Of a DNA stretch of 32,000 nt, positions 1 through 11,714 are shown piece by piece. The notes beneath the pieces are model-generated. The model did not search any database. It had not been told where the DNA came from and was given only the letters and a program-made list of their open reading frames with translations. The stretch covers positions 6,293-38,292 of the forward strand of contig JAPYVP010000005.1 of NCBI GenBank assembly GCA_028276785.1. The letters are read 5' to 3'. This stretch comes from Candidatus Nanopusillus sp. GTDB taxonomy: Archaea > Nanobdellota > Nanobdellia > Nanobdellales > Nanobdellaceae. Position numbers and translations under genes: made by a program. Positions within the stretch are counted from its first letter, which is position 1. Each line of letters starts with the position of its first letter.

Positions 1-591
1 TTGTATGCTATATTTGTTATATTTATAGGATTATCTATTTCTATATTAAATACAATTAAACCATTGATAGTAAGCCAAATTTCAGCTTCTACTGTTCAAA
101 CATCTTTTAATTTCTTTTCTTCTTCAATAGATTATCCTTGGTTAAAATTTATTACAGCTTTATCAATAATTTTAGTAGGGATTTCATCATCAATTGTAAT
201 GGGTATTGCTGAAAGCGGAAAAATAAGATCTTCTGTAAAACATTTAGCAATAAATAATTTAATAGGACTGTTGTCCATAATAATATTTGTTTTACCATCT
301 TTTGTATCATTTAATTTGCAAGTTTTTCCGACAAATGCTTATATATACACCCCAATAAATATACAAATATATGGATATATTGATGCACAACCAATAACAA
401 ATGCTCCATTAGCAATATATGTAATAAATTCAACTGGAGACTATGTTTATCAAAATTTTCAAATATTACAGAATGGATACTATTCTCAGTCTATTACTTT
501 AAATAATACCGGTACATATATTATAGAAGCTATATTGGATTATAATGGTAAAAAATACGTACAAAAGCAGAGCATTAATGTAACAATATGA
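1..591 (+). CDS. Polytopic membrane protein, probably 5'-truncated by the window edge, with a C-terminal beta-rich extracellular domain; possibly the C-terminus of a FlaJ/TadC-type pilus platform protein
   Basis: Frame is open from nt 1. Three hydrophobic helices (YAIFVIFIGLSISIL, LKFITALSIILVGISSSIVMGIA, LIGLLSIIIFVLPSFV) precede ~100 aa of Y/N/T-rich beta-type sequence. Its stop overlaps the next start (ATGA, 588-591). The platform-protein idea rests only on context, since a pilin-like gene follows. Confidence 0.6.
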   Translation: MYAIFVIFIGLSISILNTIKPLIVSQISASTVQTSFNFFSSSIDYPWLKFITALSIILVGISSSIVMGIAESGKIRSSVKHLAINNLIGLLSIIIFVLPSFVSFNLQVFPTNAYIYTPINIQIYGYIDAQPITNAPLAIYVINSTGDYVYQNFQILQNGYYSQSITLNNTGTYIIEAILDYNGKKYVQKQSINVTI

Positions 592-1274
592 AGTCTCAAA
601 GTTGGATTGAAGTATTAATTACACTTGCTGTATTTTTATACATTATAATTTATATTTATCAGAGTATAGTTAGTGGAGTAGCACAGTATTCATCTGGATT
701 GTACAAAATGACTGAATATCAAAAATTATATACTAGTTCATTTTATTTTTCTCAATTCTATGATCCACGGCAAGTATATAATTATTTAAATTTTTCTTTT
801 TCATATTATTATGCCCCAAAAGTTATATTTTTGTCTACAAATCCATATATTTGTAACAATTGCATAGAATTTTTTTATAATACTAGTTCAAATAGTATAG
901 GAATAATACAGAGATCTTATATAAATGTATCATCAGTTTTGCAAGTTTACATATATGGATCAACACAGAATATTAGCATAATAAATAATTCAGCATATTA
1001 TAGTTGTTATAATCATCTAAGTTCATCTTTTTTTACTGTATATACAAGAACTTATTTATATTGTAATTTTAATTTAATTGGAAACTCTAGTATTTACATA
1101 AATACAAATGAAAAATTTTTAATTATAAATAATTATAATACTGTACTATATTTGTATAATGGAGATAAGATTGTTGGTCTTCCAAATATATTAATAAATA
1201 TTTATCCGACAGTACATTTAAATTATTTTCAATATTTTAATGGCTCTATAAATTATATATCTTTATATGGATAA
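588..1274 (+). CDS. Pilin-like secreted protein with a putative class III (prepilin-type) signal peptide
   Basis: N-terminus MKS/QSWIEVLITLAVFLYIIIYIY has a short charged n-region, a small residue, Gln at +1, Glu at +5 and a ~20-aa hydrophobic helix. The rest is Cys-containing, N-x-S/T-rich and beta-type. Translationally coupled to the upstream membrane protein. Confidence 0.6.
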   Translation: MKSQSWIEVLITLAVFLYIIIYIYQSIVSGVAQYSSGLYKMTEYQKLYTSSFYFSQFYDPRQVYNYLNFSFSYYYAPKVIFLSTNPYICNNCIEFFYNTSSNSIGIIQRSYINVSSVLQVYIYGSTQNISIINNSAYYSCYNHLSSSFFTVYTRTYLYCNFNLIGNSSIYINTNEKFLIINNYNTVLYLYNGDKIVGLPNILINIYPTVHLNYFQYFNGSINYISLYG

Positions 1275-1281
1275 TGAAAAA

Positions 1282-1289
1282 TTTATATA
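1282..1289 (+). promoter_or_regulatory. TATA-like box (TTTATATA, preceded by an A-rich BRE-like GAAAAA) upstream of tRNA-Lys
   Basis: Located 30-37 nt upstream of the mature tRNA 5' end, which implies a short leader needing RNase P processing. Confidence 0.3.
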
Positions 1290-1318
1290 AGAATCGCAAA
1301 TATAAATTAAATATTGCT

Positions 1319-1392
1319 GGGCCCGTAGCTTAGTCTGGTAAAGCGTCGGGCTTTTAACCCGAAGATCGGGGGTTCGAATCCCCCCGGGCCCG
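1319..1392 (+). tRNA. tRNA-Lys (anticodon UUU), no intron, CCA not encoded
   Basis: Hand-folded cloverleaf: acceptor GGGCCCG/CGGGCCC, D stem GCTT/AAGC, anticodon stem TCGGG/CCCGA, loop CTTTTAA, variable AGATC, T arm GGGGG-TTCGAAT-CCCCC, discriminator G. Confidence 0.95.
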
Positions 1393-1434
1393 GGTTCGAT
1401 TATCATAAATGATTAAGGTTATTAGCAATCATAA

Positions 1435-1466: not shown

Positions 1467-1868
1467 ATGGAGATAAAGAAGATATTATATTTTATTACAA
1501 TAAATTTTCTATTGTTGATTTCTGCGCCTAATATATATTCACAAGTAGGAGCAGTTGTTGTTGGAAGTAATAGTGCTGTAGCTAATAGTATAACGTTATC
1601 TACAGCAAATTTATATTATTGTGTTGCTTCTTCCACCGGTTCAACCCTTACTCCAAGTTTTAATGTAATGGTAAATAACGGAGGTTATGCAGTAATTGGA
1701 AATTCCAGTACAAATTCATGTTCATTTACTACTACAGCTACAAGTTATGTGATAGGTGGGGTTTCTGTAAATAACTATTCAGTTCCAGTTATTTTAGCTA
1801 CTTTTACAAATACATATACTGCAACAAGTACGGTAACAATTCCATTTACAATTTCTGGACAAAAATAA
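1467..1868 (+). CDS. Segment 1 (frame 3) of a frame-interrupted large secreted surface protein: Sec-type signal peptide plus the first S/T/N-rich beta module
   Basis: MEIKKILYFITINFLLLISAPNIYSQ has an n-region, h-region and small residues. Composition and motifs continue seamlessly in frame 1 after the AAA TAA stop at 1863-1868. Confidence 0.85.
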   Translation: MEIKKILYFITINFLLLISAPNIYSQVGAVVVGSNSAVANSITLSTANLYYCVASSTGSTLTPSFNVMVNNGGYAVIGNSSTNSCSFTTTATSYVIGGVSVNNYSVPVILATFTNTYTATSTVTIPFTISGQK

Positions 1869-3648
1869 TACAGTATTAATATTATTATCTTCGGGGGGAA
1901 CAAGGAATGGAGGTACTATTAGTGGAGTAACATTACCTAGTGGATGTTCACAATTATTTTTAACATCTTCTGGAACTGCAGCTAGTGTATATGCTGCAGT
2001 ATGTAATAAATTAGCTCCTGGTACTTATAGTATCTCATTTACTGTTAATCGTGGTGCAGGATCAACAGTATATGTTTCTGCATTAGTATTAGGATTTCCG
2101 GTATTCACCTTTAATATTACAGGACCCAACAGTATAAGTGTTTATACAAATTATAATAATTCAACAACAATATATGTAAATCAATTAACAGGAAATACTG
2201 CTTTACCAGTTACTTTATCCTGTTCAACAAATAGTAGTTATTTATCTTGTTTATTATCAAATACAACTGTTACTCCAAATGCATCAGTAACATTAACTGT
2301 TACTGCATCATCATCAATTACCCCAGGTACATATTCAGTAACAATTTCAGGTACGGCACCAAATGGTGCTACAAATTCTACTACTATAACAGTTAATGTA
2401 CAACAATTATATAATAATCCACAAATATATATTATATCTCCATCTAACAATTCAATATCAAACTATTATCAATTAAATATATCATTTTATACAAATTATC
2501 CAAATGTAAATGTAACAATAAATGGAAATACATATAGTATAAGTGTAACACCAGGTAATAATGTTATTCAATTAAATTATCAGAATTCATCATACAATTT
2601 ACCAGGATTGTATAATATTATACCAAATGGAGGAAATATTACAATACAATTATCAACATCAAATCCATTAGGACAAATAAATTCAACTGGAATATATGTT
2701 TATACATTACCCCCACCAATATTTAATGTATCATATGCATATCCCACACCATCGAATGGTACACAAGAAAATATATGGTTACTAGGAATTAATACAAATA
2801 TATATGATAATACCTTAGGTCAATATTATTGTCAAATACAATTCTTAAATCAAACAAGTAATCAATGGGTAACAATAGCAAATTCATGTTCAGATATGTT
2901 GTATAATGGAATATTGCAACAATATGCAAAATTAGATAGTAATGGATACTATTCCATATGGTATAGGGTATATTCATATAATAATTATGGATTATATCAA
3001 TATACAAATCCACAAGTAATATATATAGCGCAAAATGCATATAATGTATCGGTGGTAAATAATACATTAAGCAATACACAAATACAGGGGATAATAGATT
3101 CTGCAATTAATAATTCAATACCAGTAGTAGTATTCCCTCCAGGAGTATATTTAGTAAACTTAGTAATAGATCCACAAGGTAAAAATATAACATTATTGGG
3201 ACAAAATGCAATATTTGAACCTGCAAATCCCGGATTACCAGTTATAGATATAAAATCCTCAAATGTAACAATACAAAATATAAATATTAATACAAATCTA
3301 TTTGCAATAAATGTAAATAATGGTGTGTTGAACATAATAAATTCAAATATAAATTCGGGATTATTCGGAATAAATGTAAAAAATCCGTCAGTAGTAAATG
3401 TATATAATTCTACAATAAAGGGAAATATAGGATCTATATATGGTTATATACAAAATTCAACAATAAGCAATACCAATATACAATCTTCTGTATGGGGTGT
3501 GTATATTAATAATCCATATAATGTAATAATAGATAATTCAAACATAAATGGACAAATATTTGGAGTATATCTTGATGGAACTGCAATAAATAACACAATA
3601 AAGAACAGTAATATAATTTCTAAATATATTTGGAATAAGAATAAATAA
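1837..3648 (+). CDS. Segment 2 (frame 1) of the same surface protein: Ig-like/CARDB-like modules followed by a parallel beta-helix (PbH1/NosD-like) domain; the ORF track shows only 2608..3648
   Basis: I translated 1837-3648 codon by codon: 604 codons with no stop. The first canonical start in frame is TTG 2608. 1870-2607 encodes ...PGTYSISFTVNRG...CSTNSSYLSCLLSNTTVTPNASVTLTVTASSSITPGTYSVTISGTAPNG.... The beta-helix entry motif IPVVVFPPGVYLVNLVIDPQGKNITLLG is followed by ~22-aa NSxIxxxxFGIxV repeats. Confidence 0.85.
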   Translation, partial: QFHLQFLDKNNTVLILLSSGGTRNGGTISGVTLPSGCSQLFLTSSGTAASVYAAVCNKLAPGTYSISFTVNRGAGSTVYVSALVLGFPVFTFNITGPNSISVYTNYNNSTTIYVNQLTGNTALPVTLSCSTNSSYLSCLLSNTTVTPNASVTLTVTASSSITPGTYSVTISGTAPNGATNSTTITVNVQQLYNNPQIYIISPSNNSISNYYQLNISFYTNYPNVNVTINGNTYSISVTPGNNVIQLNYQNSSYNLPGLYNIIPNGGNITIQLSTSNPLGQINSTGIYVYTLPPPIFNVSYAYPTPSNGTQENIWLLGINTNIYDNTLGQYYCQIQFLNQTSNQWVTIANSCSDMLYNGILQQYAKLDSNGYYSIWYRVYSYNNYGLYQYTNPQVIYIAQNAYNVSVVNNTLSNTQIQGIIDSAINNSIPVVVFPPGVYLVNLVIDPQGKNITLLGQNAIFEPANPGLPVIDIKSSNVTIQNININTNLFAINVNNGVLNIINSNINSGLFGINVKNPSVVNVYNSTIKGNIGSIYGYIQNSTISNTNIQSSVWGVYINNPYNVIIDNSNINGQIFGVYLDGTAINNTIKNSNIISKYIWNKNK

Positions 3649-4201
3649 CGGAAATAATAATATTATAGTAAATAATAGTGTACAATCAAACATATTTGGA
3701 ATATATTTAACATCATCAGGAAATAATATAAAAAATGTTTATATAAAAGTAGGACAAGTATTTGGATTGTATATAACTCAACCAAATAACATAATAAATG
3801 TAACAACATATGGTGGATTGTTTGGATATTATTTAACAGGTAATGCAGCAAATATATCTTTATATAATTCACAATTGGGAATTGCAATATATGGAAGCGG
3901 ATATATAAATAATTTGACAACATCTACGGGAAGCGTAGACATATACTATAATAATTCACAAGGATTCATAAATAGTTTAAGTAGTATAATATATAATACA
4001 AAAGTAAATAATACATTATATAATTATTATGCAGGCATATCAATAATAGGAACTATAAATGGAAATATTACATTTATTAATTTGCCACCTGCTACTAGTT
4101 ATATTGTAGAAAGGATAGTAGCAAGTAATAGAAATATAATATCTACAAATAATACATTTATACCACAAGGATTTGGAAATTATCAACTATTTTATTCATA
4201 A
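3617..4201 (+). CDS. Segment 3 (frame 2) of the same surface protein: continuation of the beta-helix repeats and the C-terminal domain; the ORF track shows only 3767..4201
   Basis: Frame 2 is open from 3617. It reads NIFGIRINNGNNNIIVNNSVQSNIFGIYLTSSGNNIKNVYIKVGQVFGLYIT..., which is in register with the repeats of segment 2. Confidence 0.8.
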   Translation, partial: FLNIFGIRINNGNNNIIVNNSVQSNIFGIYLTSSGNNIKNVYIKVGQVFGLYITQPNNIINVTTYGGLFGYYLTGNAANISLYNSQLGIAIYGSGYINNLTTSTGSVDIYYNNSQGFINSLSSIIYNTKVNNTLYNYYAGISIIGTINGNITFINLPPATSYIVERIVASNRNIISTNNTFIPQGFGNYQLFYS

Positions 4202-4223: not shown

Positions 4224-5018
4224 ATGAGTTTAGATACTTTAATATTAGCGGGAGGTTTTGCAAAGAGATTTAGACCATTATCAGATTATGTACCAAAACC
4301 ATTATTTCCAGTAGGCGGTGTACCTTTGATATATTATATAATAGAAAAAGCATTAGAAACTGGATCAGATGAAATAATTATATCTACAAATAAAAAATAT
4401 GAAAATCATTTTAGGCATATTCTAGCGTCATTATATTCTTTTTATGAACCATCTCAAATTGGAAAAATAAGATTGGTAATTGAACCATCAAGTTCTGAAG
4501 AAAATAAGCTTGGATCAATCGGTGGTTTACATTATGCAATAAAAGAGATGGGTATAAATAATAATCTATTAATATTGCTGGGAGATAATTTGTTTAGCTT
4601 TAATTTAAATAAAATAATTAAATTAGGAAATGAAAATAATTCTATAGCCTTAGCAATATATGATATAAAAAATTATGAGGATGCAAAAAATTATGGTGTA
4701 GTAAAATTAGAAGATAATATAATAAAGGAATTTTATGAAAAACCCCAAAATCCTCCATATACCACAATATCTACTGGAATATATTATATCCCAAAAGAAA
4801 AATTATATCTATTAGATGAATATATGAAGTCTAATTATAGTAAAGATTCTATGGGAAATTTCTTCGAATATTTAATAAAAAGGGGAGAAAAATTGTATGG
4901 ATATGTGTATGATGATGATAATGAATACTGGTTTGACATTGGTACGATAGAATCTTATCAAAGAGCAAATAATTTTGCAAATGAAAGAGGTTTATATAGA
5001 AGATGGATATGGCCATAA
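4224..5018 (+). CDS. Sugar-1-phosphate nucleotidyltransferase (NTP_transferase family)
   Basis: N-terminal LILAGGFAKRFRPLSDYVPKPLFPVGG matches the LAGGxGxRLxPLTxxxPKPL signature. GDNLF and GVV motifs follow. Confidence 0.8.
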   Translation: MSLDTLILAGGFAKRFRPLSDYVPKPLFPVGGVPLIYYIIEKALETGSDEIIISTNKKYENHFRHILASLYSFYEPSQIGKIRLVIEPSSSEENKLGSIGGLHYAIKEMGINNNLLILLGDNLFSFNLNKIIKLGNENNSIALAIYDIKNYEDAKNYGVVKLEDNIIKEFYEKPQNPPYTTISTGIYYIPKEKLYLLDEYMKSNYSKDSMGNFFEYLIKRGEKLYGYVYDDDNEYWFDIGTIESYQRANNFANERGLYRRWIWP

Positions 5019-5048
5019 ATAAAAGTTTTTCTTATAAATTATTTTTAG

Positions 5049-6824
5049 ATGATAAGATCTCCAATAATTGTTGTTTTAGGTCATGTTGGAGCTGGTAAAA
5101 CTTCTTTATTAGATAAGATTAGAAATACATCTTATGCAAAAAAAGAAGCTGGTGAAATGACCCAACATATTGGGGCTACGGAAGTATCAATTGATATAAT
5201 TAAGGAAATCTCAAAACCATTATTAAATTTGTTTAAATTTGACTTAAAAATCCCCTCTCTATTATTTATTGATACTCCAGGTCATGAAGTATTTAGTAAT
5301 TTAAGAAAAAGAGGGGGATCTGTTTCAGATTTAGCAATTATTGTTGTAGATATATTGGATGGTTTTCAGAAACAAACATATGAAGCAATAGAAATATGTA
5401 AGCAACTAAAAGTGCCTTTTTTAATTGCATTAAATAAAATAGATAAAATAGATGGATGGAAATCATATGAAAATAAACCATTTTTAGAAAGTATAAAATA
5501 CCAAGATCAAAAAGTAATAAATAAATTAGAAGAATATACATACAACATTGTGGCTAAATTATATGAATTGGGTTTTGATTCTGATAGATATGATAGAATA
5601 AAAGATTTTAGAAGACAGGTTGCGATAGTTCCAGTTTCTTCAAAAACTGGAGAAGGTATTCCAGATTTATTATTATTAATTGCTGGACTTTCTCAAAGAT
5701 ATTTAGAAGAAAAATTAAGAATAAATGTTGAAGGAAATGGAATTGGTGTAATTTTAGAAGTAAAGGAAGAAAAAGGTTTGGGTAGTGTAATAGATATGAT
5801 ATTATATGATGGTAAAATAAAAAAAGGTGATAAAATTGCATTTTTATCAAAAGATGGTATTAAAACAACAAAAGTAAAATTAATATTAAAACCTGTACCT
5901 TTAACAGATATTAGATTTGCTGGTAGAAATAAATTTAAAGAAATAGACGTAGCATACGCAGCAAGTGGTGTAAGGATATCTGCGGATGGATTAGATAATG
6001 CTCTACCAGGTTCTACAGTTTATGTATATAACGATGAAAAAGAATTAAAGGAAATAGAAAAAAAATTAAAAAAAGATATCGAAAACATAATATTTCAAAC
6101 TGATAAAGAAGGTATTATTGTTAAAGCAGATACTTTGGGATCTTTAGAAGTATTGGTAAAAATGTTAAAAGATAGGAATATTCCAATAAAAAAAGCAGAT
6201 ATAGGAGATATAAATAAGGAAGATGTAAATATAGCATTATCTATGAAGGAAAAATATCCACAATATTCTGTTATAGTTGGATTTAATATTGGGATAAATA
6301 AAAATGATGAAGAATATGTGAAATCTTCAAATATAAATTTAATAATATCAAATGTTATATATGATTTAATTGAAAAAATCGAGAAATATATTAATGATAT
6401 AAAATATAATAAAGAAAAAATATTAAAAGAATTGCCTCCAGTGGGGAAGATAAGAATATTAAAGGGAAATATATTTAGAAGATCAAATCCCGCAATTGTT
6501 GGAATTGAAGTTTTAGGAGGAGAAATAAGGAAGGATGTATATTTAATTAATTTAAATGGAAAAATAATTGGAAAAATTTTAGCAATACAAAAGGAGAAAA
6601 AGAATATGGATGTAGCTATAAAAAATGATAAGGTCGCTATATCCATAGATGATGCAATAGTTGGAAGAAATATATTTGAAGATGACATATTATATACCTT
6701 TATATCTGAAAATGATTATAGAAAATTTAAGGAAAATAAGGATCTCTTAAGTGATGAACAAAAAGAGATATTAAAAGAAATAGCAGGTATAATGAGAAAA
6801 GAAAATCCTGCCTGGGGGCTATAA
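5049..6824 (+). CDS. infB: Translation initiation factor aIF5B (IF2 family GTPase)
   Basis: G1 VLGHVGAGKTSLLDKIR, G3 DTPGHEVF, G4 LNKIDK, then the beta-barrel and C-terminal domains. The 591-aa length is typical. Confidence 0.95.
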   Translation: MIRSPIIVVLGHVGAGKTSLLDKIRNTSYAKKEAGEMTQHIGATEVSIDIIKEISKPLLNLFKFDLKIPSLLFIDTPGHEVFSNLRKRGGSVSDLAIIVVDILDGFQKQTYEAIEICKQLKVPFLIALNKIDKIDGWKSYENKPFLESIKYQDQKVINKLEEYTYNIVAKLYELGFDSDRYDRIKDFRRQVAIVPVSSKTGEGIPDLLLLIAGLSQRYLEEKLRINVEGNGIGVILEVKEEKGLGSVIDMILYDGKIKKGDKIAFLSKDGIKTTKVKLILKPVPLTDIRFAGRNKFKEIDVAYAASGVRISADGLDNALPGSTVYVYNDEKELKEIEKKLKKDIENIIFQTDKEGIIVKADTLGSLEVLVKMLKDRNIPIKKADIGDINKEDVNIALSMKEKYPQYSVIVGFNIGINKNDEEYVKSSNINLIISNVIYDLIEKIEKYINDIKYNKEKILKELPPVGKIRILKGNIFRRSNPAIVGIEVLGGEIRKDVYLINLNGKIIGKILAIQKEKKNMDVAIKNDKVAISIDDAIVGRNIFEDDILYTFISENDYRKFKENKDLLSDEQKEILKEIAGIMRKENPAWGL

Positions 6825-10277: not shown

Positions 10278-11453
10278 ATGGAAATTAAATCTGCAAAAGC
10301 AAGGGTTATTCTAAATTCTAGAGGAGATCCAACATTAGAAATTGAAATAAATGGTTATTCAGAAGCCGCTCCAGAGGGGGCAAGCAAAGGGTCTGGAGAA
10401 GTTCCATATTTAGATCCTAAAAAAGCTGCTGAATTGTTCAATAATGAATTGGTAGATTTTCTTAAAACATTTGATATAATAACTTTAGATGATTTAAAAG
10501 AATTTGAAAGTGAATTTGAATCAATTGGTGGAATAAAGAGATATGGAGGTAATACATTAATTGCTACTGAATATGCTATATTAAGAGCATGGTCTCATTA
10601 TGAAGGAAAACCTATTTACAAATTTTTTAATAAAAATCCAAAAATAAATATAAGAATATTGGCAAATGTTGTTGGTGGTGGTGCGCATTCAAGAGGTAGA
10701 AGTACAAATATTCAAGAATTCTTAGTTTCTCCAGATACAGATAATTTACCTTTATCCATTTTTATTGCATCCTATATACATAAATTATTGGGGAAGAGAT
10801 TAGAATTGTTGGATGATAAATTTTTATATGGAAGGAATGATGAAGGTGCATGGACAACATCGCTTGAAGATGAAACAATATTTAATATTATAAAAATGGT
10901 TTTTGATGAGGTTAAGATTGATTATAATATAAAAGTTGATCTTGGAATTGATTTTGCTGCAAGTCAATTATATAAAGATAACGCATATAAATATAAAAAT
11001 AAAGTATTTTCTAGAGAAGATCAAATAAAATATGTAAAATTTCTTATAGATACATATGATTTATTTTATGTTGAAGATCCGTTATATGAAGAAGATTTTG
11101 AAGGATTTGCAGAGATAAATAATAGTACGAAAAGCTTAATTGTTGGAGACGATTTAACAGTAACAAATGTAGAAAGAATAAAAAAATCTTTAATATATAA
11201 ATCAATTAAGGGTGTTATAATAAAACCAAATCAAATAGGTTCTGTTGTTAAGGCATATGAAGTTGTAAAATTCTGTAAAGAAAACGGTCTAGTACCAATA
11301 TTATCTCATAGATCCGGAGAAACAGAAAGTAATATACTAGCTCATTTAGCAGTTGGATTTGAAGTTCCATTTGTGAAGTTTGGAATTATAAATGGAGAGA
11401 GAATTGCAAAATTAAATGAATTAATTAGAATATATGAAAGCTTAAATAAATAA
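10278..11453 (+). CDS. eno: Enolase (2-phosphoglycerate dehydratase), compact 391-aa form
   Basis: ARVILNSRGDPTLEIEI, PEGASKGSGE, DFAASQ, VEDP, VGDDLTVTN, IKPNQIGS, SHRSGETES and KFG...ERIAKLNELIRI are all present, so the metal and catalytic residues are conserved. Confidence 0.95.
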   Translation: MEIKSAKARVILNSRGDPTLEIEINGYSEAAPEGASKGSGEVPYLDPKKAAELFNNELVDFLKTFDIITLDDLKEFESEFESIGGIKRYGGNTLIATEYAILRAWSHYEGKPIYKFFNKNPKINIRILANVVGGGAHSRGRSTNIQEFLVSPDTDNLPLSIFIASYIHKLLGKRLELLDDKFLYGRNDEGAWTTSLEDETIFNIIKMVFDEVKIDYNIKVDLGIDFAASQLYKDNAYKYKNKVFSREDQIKYVKFLIDTYDLFYVEDPLYEEDFEGFAEINNSTKSLIVGDDLTVTNVERIKKSLIYKSIKGVIIKPNQIGSVVKAYEVVKFCKENGLVPILSHRSGETESNILAHLAVGFEVPFVKFGIINGERIAKLNELIRIYESLNK

Positions 11454-11714
11454 CTTGAACCATTTTTTATATTCTTCAGGTACCTCAATTAATCCTAAAT
11501 TAACTAGTGTATCCAATATTCCCCATATATAATTTTCTAATTCAAATGCTTTTACGAAATCTTTATTTTCATAAAAATATTTCATGTCATTATAATAAGA
11601 TATAACAAATTTTTCAAACCTGTTATCTAAAAATCTTATGTTTTTAAATATTAATTCTAGTTTTTTATATTCTCTGTCCAGATAATAGAAAAACTCTTCT
11701 TCATTTATTCTCAT
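11442..11714 (-). CDS. Small helical protein, DUF357-like
   Basis: VISYYNDMKYFYENKDFVKAFELENYIWGILDTLVNLGL fits the DUF357 pattern A..Y..DA.YF.e.gD...A.....YA.GwLDa...lG. 90 aa. Confidence 0.5.
   Translation of the reverse strand: MRINEEEFFYYLDREYKKLELIFKNIRFLDNRFEKFVISYYNDMKYFYENKDFVKAFELENYIWGILDTLVNLGLIEVPEEYKKWFKLFI

Follow-up and report, generated by a model that had tools for sequence, protein, structure and literature searches.

Gene organization at the locus

The stretch of DNA analysed here, referred to below as the window, comprises 32,000 nucleotides (nt) of Candidatus Nanopusillus sp. (contig JAPYVP010000005.1, positions 6,293 to 38,292 of the forward strand). At 1467-4201 of its plus strand lies a disrupted gene that is read in three frames and whose joined segments encode a secreted beta-helix protein of 910 residues (Table 1). 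Reading begins in frame 3 with an ATG at 1467 and runs to ...ATT TCT GGA CAA AAA TAA. Frame 1 is open from 1837 to 3648, and frame 2 from 3617 to the natural stop codon at 4199-4201. A preliminary description of the window had placed the end of frame 3 on AAA-TAA (stop 1866-1868), the opening of frame 1 at 1837 and a run of five adenines (A5) at 1861-1865, all of them correctly. The second frame break, a change of TCT-AAT into TCT-AAAT, lies 21 nt upstream of the frame-1 stop, and the codon that follows it is TAT, not a stop codon. The two lesions together affect one gene, equivalent to 8.5% of the window. The remaining open reading frames (ORFs) across the 32 kb are all intact and tightly packed.

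A reading of the segments as separate genes is ruled out. The first ATG, GTG or TTG of frame 1 occurs only at 2608, after 257 codons that lack a start, and thus frame 1 is not a separate gene; moreover, the three segments are collinear with single orthologous proteins. On the contig of the window itself, gene callers produced a 346-residue fragment that corresponds to window positions 2608-3648.

Table 1. Positions of the gene segments, lesions, upstream tRNA and matching contigs of JGI metagenome 3300036468 in the window.
Feature	Position	Strand	Mismatches	Gaps	Description
Segment 1 (frame 3)	1467-1868	+			Signal peptide and N-terminal region, 133 codons plus premature TAA; aligns to residues 1-133 of intact orthologues
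Lesion 1, A5 run	1861-1865	+			One A more than in the near-identical strain and all orthologues, which have A4 (CAA-AAT-AAT)
Premature TAA	1866-1868	+			Produced directly by the insertion: CAA-AAT-AAT plus one A gives CAA-AAA-TAA
Segment 2 (frame 1)	1867-3624	+			586 codons; immunoglobulin-like (Ig-like) region and beginning of the beta-helix
Lesion 2	3622-3624	+			AAA versus AA in orthologues and in the near-identical strain (TCT-AAT-ATA-TTT, Ser-Asn-Ile-Phe); one extra A
Frame-1 stop, AAA-TAA (3643-3648)	3646-3648	+			Seven codons past lesion 2; consequence of the shift, not the shift site
Segment 3 (frame 2)	3626-4201	+			191 codons of beta-helix repeats plus natural stop (4199-4201); Pfam PF13229
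tRNA-Lys(UUU)	1318-1393				Directly upstream of the disrupted gene; normal 7-nt anticodon loop (CUUUUAA)
L040	1-2890		5	1 (extra A of the A5 run)	
L039	2771-5105 (2,334 nt)		0	1 (extra A at 3622-3624)	
L004	4979-12824		2	0	

The joined protein consists of an N-terminal segment resembling a signal peptide, a middle part rich in Asn, Thr and Ser, and a C-terminal right-handed beta-helix. Once repaired, it matches PF13229 (Beta_helix) over residues 664-802 with 29.5 bits (gathering cut-off 25.9; E = 6.9e-07), and the orthologues carry PF13229 in their precomputed annotation. Searches of PDB and NCBIfam with the protein gave no match.

Intact alleles in related strains

Three contigs of JGI metagenome 3300036468 (L040, L039 and L004), retrieved by exact-protein look-ups of the window's neighbouring genes, tile the locus. 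L040 and L039 share an exact overlap of 120 nt, and the sequence joined there contains one ORF of 910 codons. Compared with the product that a +1 shift would yield from the window, its translation has only the changes K133N, R146K and K719N. At the nucleotide level, two private one-A insertions (A4 to A5 at 1861-1865, A2 to A3 at 3622-3624) and three substitutions are all that separates the window gene from the gene of this strain. Thus, the intact gene is present in a strain that is 99.8-100% identical, and both frameshifts are private to the window's assembly. Neither genome and metagenome scans nor exact look-ups, including those with the 133-residue ORF and with P0027, a protein of the window's own contig, returned a second copy of the A5 or A3 allele.

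The three contigs of the JGI assembly are joined by exact overlaps of 120 nt (window 2771-2890) and 127 nt (window 4979-5105). These breaks around the surface-protein gene suggest branch points in the assembly graph that are caused by co-existing gene variants.

Uninterrupted orthologues found by protein search cover a wider range of distances. They comprise P0030 (910 residues) and P0031 (915 residues), both about 96.5% identical, P0008 (904 residues, 92% identical) and P0012 from Ca. Nanobsidianus stetteri (909 residues, 84% identical). In the contigs L001, L003, L037 and L038 the gene is a single ORF for 904-915 residues at the syntenic locus. The order of genes around the orthologues is that of the window, namely T2SSF, T2SSF, a gene for 228 residues, a gap (occupied by tRNA-Lys in the window), the beta-helix gene, NTP-transferase and aIF5B, which identifies them as true orthologues.

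The preliminary description had proposed comparing the orthologous site in sister genomes, and the outcome speaks against the programmed frameshifting that it had raised. Every intact orthologue, across 84-96.5% nucleotide identity, is a single ORF with A4 and an Asn codon at site 1, where the DNA reads GGAC-AAAAT-AAT and the protein SGQ-N-N/D/E-TVLIL, as against GGAC-AAAAAT-AAT in the window. At site 2, the orthologues have TCN-AAT-ATA-TTT, encoding IS-N-IFGI, and the window has TCT-AAAT-ATA-TTT. The same description had predicted that removal of one A would restore ...TISGQNNTVLILL... (...SGQNNTVLILL...), and this is exactly what the orthologues encode.

A further set of contigs (L009, L010, L011 and L017-L023; for example L010:4001-7630) encodes paralogues or orthologues of 1008-1272 residues that match residues 1-312 of the query and then again residues 181-910. 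This doubled match indicates that the N-terminal Ig-like module has been duplicated or expanded and that the number of modules varies among strains.

Origin of the frame breaks

In our judgement, the first junction is probably a real, recent and strain-private loss-of-function allele that arose by insertion of a single base, one of two such insertions in the gene. Extension of the A4 run to A5 at 1861-1865 would stop translation at 1866-1868 after 133 residues, and the gene would become a nascent pseudogene, a loss-of-function allele for a cell-surface protein that evolves fast. With the gene already inactivated by the first insertion, the second (A2 to A3, 3622-3624) would have been neutral, in which case two lesions in one gene are to be expected. 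The insertions would then be present in the cells rather than stem from the assembly, and the product would be lost.

The gene displays one mark of a frameshift pseudogene or loss-of-function allele. Relative to the intact orthologues, two +A insertions truncate the ORF, a stop follows codon 133, and segment 2 is left without a start. The assembly from which the window is taken is not prone to insertions or deletions (indels). Over 10,054 nt compared with the independent assembly (L039 and L004), including 48 homopolymers of at least 6 nt and 70 of 5 nt, lesion 2 is the sole difference in length. Population genomics of hot-spring Nanoarchaeota found variability to be greatest, with the highest densities of non-synonymous single-nucleotide polymorphisms, in two gene classes, FlaJ/TadC homologues and hypothetical cell-surface proteins (PMC6142677), and a disrupted surface gene beside FlaJ/TadC-like genes agrees with that result.

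In a sister Nanopusillus lineage (L012:211-2946, L027, L028 and L033), this gene is beyond doubt a pseudogene; its copies there are 92% identical to the window at the nucleotide level and 99.2-99.8% identical to each other. They share five single-base indels, several of them outside homopolymers, and have two nonsense codons (CAA to TAA and TGG to TAG). In addition, two +A insertions are polymorphic among them, one from A3 to A4 (L028 only) and one from A6 to A7 (L012 and L028, not L027). The pseudogene is found in three assemblies, a MEGAHIT-style contig of a metagenome-assembled genome (MAG) and two JGI metagenomes, and the genes next to it are intact. In L012, the ratio of non-synonymous to synonymous substitution rates (dN/dS, omega) reaches 0.31-0.40, which together with the two nonsense codons indicates relaxed selection. 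Loss of this gene and +A insertions are therefore both natural events in these organisms. The +A insertions of the sister lineage are of the same kind as the window lesions, and their ratio to substitutions is about 1:3 to 1:5, which is compatible with one neutral indel beside the three substitutions in the window gene. The MAG with the sister pseudogene also carries an intact partial copy (L008).

Several observations weigh against a real mutation. On the private branch of the window, with 32 synonymous and 20 non-synonymous changes, selection is not relaxed (omega about 0.19, as compared with 0.16 and 0.22 in intact relatives), and no segment contains a nonsense codon. It follows that the lesions arose very recently or are not real; dN/dS speaks to recency only and does not separate a mutation from an error. 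Divergence from the intact allele is close to zero, the three substitutions in the gene all lying outside its 3′ half, and two indels are rather many for real evolution over so short a time. In addition, contig breaks in the assembly of the near-identical strain coincide with the gene; they point to strain heterogeneity, and a consensus built from mixed reads is conceivable. Finally, the A5 and A3 alleles occur in no second independent assembly.

These observations bear on the main rival explanation, an assembly or sequencing artefact, which we regard as possible although less probable. Here, the organism would have A4 and A2 and an intact gene, and the extra adenines would derive from a consensus over a strain-heterogeneous region. 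Apart from the two adenines, the window is identical or nearly so to the intact allele of the independent assembly; the lack of nonsense codons and of relaxed selection, and the lack of any other record with A5 or A3, are likewise what an error would leave behind. The contigs of JGI 3300036468 break exactly around the gene with overlaps of 120 and 127 nt, and co-existing variants could confuse a consensus there. Yet no other indel was found in the 10 kb compared, despite the 48 homopolymers of at least 6 nt, and the affected runs (A4 and A2) are short, unlike the usual profile of homopolymer errors. Two random errors would also both have to strike a single 2.7-kb gene within 32 kb. In a de Bruijn-graph assembly, each k-mer of a contig must occur in the reads; if the window came from such an assembly, every k-mer across the two lesions would have been present in them. 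Of the alternatives listed in the preliminary description, a homopolymer or assembly error and a real indel both stand with support, and the slipped-strand phase-variable adhesin that it had included under the latter is weak, the tracts being only A5 and A3.

Reversible slipped-strand phase variation of a surface adhesin, with the A tracts acting as a high-frequency on-off switch of the gene, is accordingly improbable. It draws on the secreted, surface-type nature of the protein and its location beside pilus-platform (T2SSF) genes. Tract lengths are polymorphic between the window and L040/L039 (A4/A5 and A2/A3), in a comparison of two assemblies only, where an artefact is possible, and the pseudogene alleles of the sister lineage are polymorphic for +A at an A3 and an A6 run. 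However, slippage is elevated in known contingency loci at tracts of about 7-8 nt or more, and A5 and A3 are far below such lengths. The gene has no excess of long tracts either. It contains three homopolymers of at least 6 nt in 2.7 kb, compared with 161 in 32 kb (1.1/kb versus 5.0/kb), the opposite of a contingency locus. Switching the gene on again would require reversion of two simultaneous off lesions, and the sister lineage decays irreversibly, through nonsense codons and indels outside homopolymers.

Programmed +1 ribosomal frameshifting as a rejected reading

The preliminary description had given prominence in its title to programmed +1 frameshifting at the first junction. In such an event, resembling that of Euplotes, Lys-tRNA(UUU) would occupy the P site and the stop codon the A site of an AAA-UAA sequence. 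The full-length product would carry Lys at residues 133 and 719, and the trans-frame peptide of the first junction is predicted to read ...FTISGQK/NTVLILLSSGGTR. At first sight the sequence is inviting. AAA-TAA stands at the first junction as well as at the close of frame 1. Two +1 shifts, one on each, would give 910 residues, the same length as in the orthologues, and the three segments are free of further lesions.

Programmed frameshift sites are conserved and held by selection. The shifts at both sites are absent at every distance sampled (84%, 92%, 96.5% and 99.8-100% identity), from all intact orthologues as well as from the 99.8-100% identical strain, and therefore neither is programmed. 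The proposal of the preliminary description fails on this point.

Moreover, the AAA-TAA at site 1 was made by the insertion itself. Once a +1 insertion has moved the reading of this gene into the new frame, no stop context is more frequent than AAA-TAA, which makes up 14 of 79 stops (19% after weighting each by its upstream open stretch), because every xxA-AAT-AAY (Asn-Asn) pair yields AAA-TAA and the gene is rich in Asn and in A. The chance of finding it at both junction stops is about 0.04, which is unremarkable since the first is forced by the insertion. AAA-TAA also ends three of the 35 ordinary ORFs of the window, and thus the context terminates translation normally in this organism. At site 2 the context is AAA-TAT, and TAT is common among the codons counted (604 of 9306). 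If the shift occurred instead at the second AAA-TAA (3643-3648), the invariant beta-helix repeat motif NIFGIRIN would become KYIWNKNK.

Nor does the RNA around the sites argue for recoding. Over the 100 nt that follow each candidate site, folding is no stronger than in shuffled sequences (z = +0.66, +1.10 and +0.78), and the same holds for the upstream 49 nt (z = +0.94). Without an RNA structure at the sites, and with a normal 7-nt anticodon loop in the adjacent tRNA-Lys(UUU), the locus lacks the signals that such a shift might use. A frameshift-suppressor tRNA is ruled out by this normal loop and by the synteny of the tRNA in genomes with intact genes.

From comparison of the sequences, the programmed reading is rejected as a conserved programmed event, and we consider it most unlikely that Euplotes-like frameshifting produces the full-length protein here. 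Transcriptional slippage is ruled out as well; runs of five and three adenines are too short for it. There is an equally slender chance that the A5/A3 allele is both real and leaky, some full-length protein arising by fortuitous, unselected +1 slippage of low efficiency at AAA-UAA, with a second shift needed near 3622-3648. If so, a freshly frameshifted surface-protein gene would be leaky rather than dead, and an event resembling that of Euplotes would take place in an archaeon. In cellular archaeal genes, only -1 frameshifting (in fucA1) is established, and +1 frameshifting is merely suspected in a haloarchaeal virus (2021 review, PMC8211752).

Comparison with known systems

In form, the site resembles the recoding sites of Euplotes and prfB, but it lacks the conservation, the stimulator and the dedicated termination context that define them. 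It agrees with an ordinary frameshift-disrupted gene that is still at the earliest stage. Like such genes, it has non-conserved single-base indels relative to intact orthologues, a truncated ORF and downstream segments without a start, and the sister lineage represents an advanced stage of the same decay. It departs from them in that the window allele is extremely young, is free of nonsense codons, shows no detectable relaxation of selection and is not yet separable from a consensus error.

In Euplotes, +1 shifts occur at AAA-UAA or AAA-UAG, and in the window AAA-TAA likewise closes the upstream frame, with the downstream frame lying at +1. The Euplotes sites, however, are pervasive and conserved and are accompanied by altered termination, whereas the window site is private, AAA-TAA ends normal genes and lesion 2 lies off a stop codon. 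The bacterial prfB (RF2) site, CUU-UGA, shares with the window the +1 direction and a slippery codon in the P site ahead of an in-frame stop. In contrast to the window site, it is conserved across bacteria, has a stimulator upstream that resembles a Shine-Dalgarno sequence and is autoregulatory.

The fucA1 gene of Saccharolobus solfataricus is, like the window gene, an archaeal gene split into overlapping ORFs with full-length homologues elsewhere. Its shift is -1 and takes place on the slippery heptamer A-AAA-AAT, accompanied by a putative stem-loop; experiments demonstrated that the full-length protein is expressed (PMC8211752, PMC1616953). The shift in the window is in the +1 direction and comes without a signal. 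With the homopolymer contingency loci of bacterial surface proteins, the window gene has in common that it encodes a surface protein and that A tracts differ in length between near-identical strains. Its tracts are of 3-5 nt, compared with about 7 nt or more in those loci; in addition, the gene is poor in long homopolymers and carries two lesions at once.

The appropriate annotation is that of a gene for a secreted, Nanopusillaceae-specific beta-helix protein which is frameshifted or a pseudogene, or else carries assembly errors. An entry as the first +1 recoding site of a cellular archaeal gene would not be justified, and beyond annotation the locus is of small importance. A modest point is that the same surface-protein gene, located beside FlaJ/TadC-like pilus genes, was disrupted independently in two wild Nanopusillus lineages with the neighbouring genes left intact. 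This independent disruption fits the published evidence that cell-surface proteins are the fastest-changing genes of these obligate ectosymbionts, and it suggests that, depending on the host or virus setting, the beta-helix protein can be dispensed with or is even selected against.

Disruption in the beta-helix family

Nanoarchaea are otherwise reported to contain few pseudogenes (PMC5339279), and recurrent disruption of one surface-protein family is therefore of some small interest. In hot-spring metagenomes, the family members L024, L026, L032 and L035 exhibit frame changes or large internal deletions. For instance, L026 lacks approximately residues 386-607 and changes frame, and L035 passes through three frames in 1.2 kb. 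In this beta-helix family, disruption seems to be common.

Genomic neighbourhood

The window has a G+C content of about 24%, and the best matches of its genes are in Candidatus Nanopusillus and Nanobsidianus. These two Nanoarchaeota are obligate ectosymbionts of hot-spring Crenarchaeota. In a part of the window distant from the disrupted gene, ARAGORN calls a 93-nt tRNA-Leu(UAG) on the minus strand (11440-11532), within the 3′ end of a DUF357 ORF (11442-11714, minus strand). The called region is very AT-rich and has no tRNA match in Rfam even at E <= 1, and the call is probably a false positive.

Upstream of the beta-helix gene lie two T2SSF (FlaJ/TadC-like) pilus-platform genes, a gene for a 228-residue protein without a recognised family, and the tRNA-Lys(UUU) gene. 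One of the T2SSF genes is partly inside the window (1-591), and both are present in L040, L001 and L003. This surface and attachment gene neighbourhood (window 1-1393 together with the beta-helix gene) is conserved in Nanopusillaceae.

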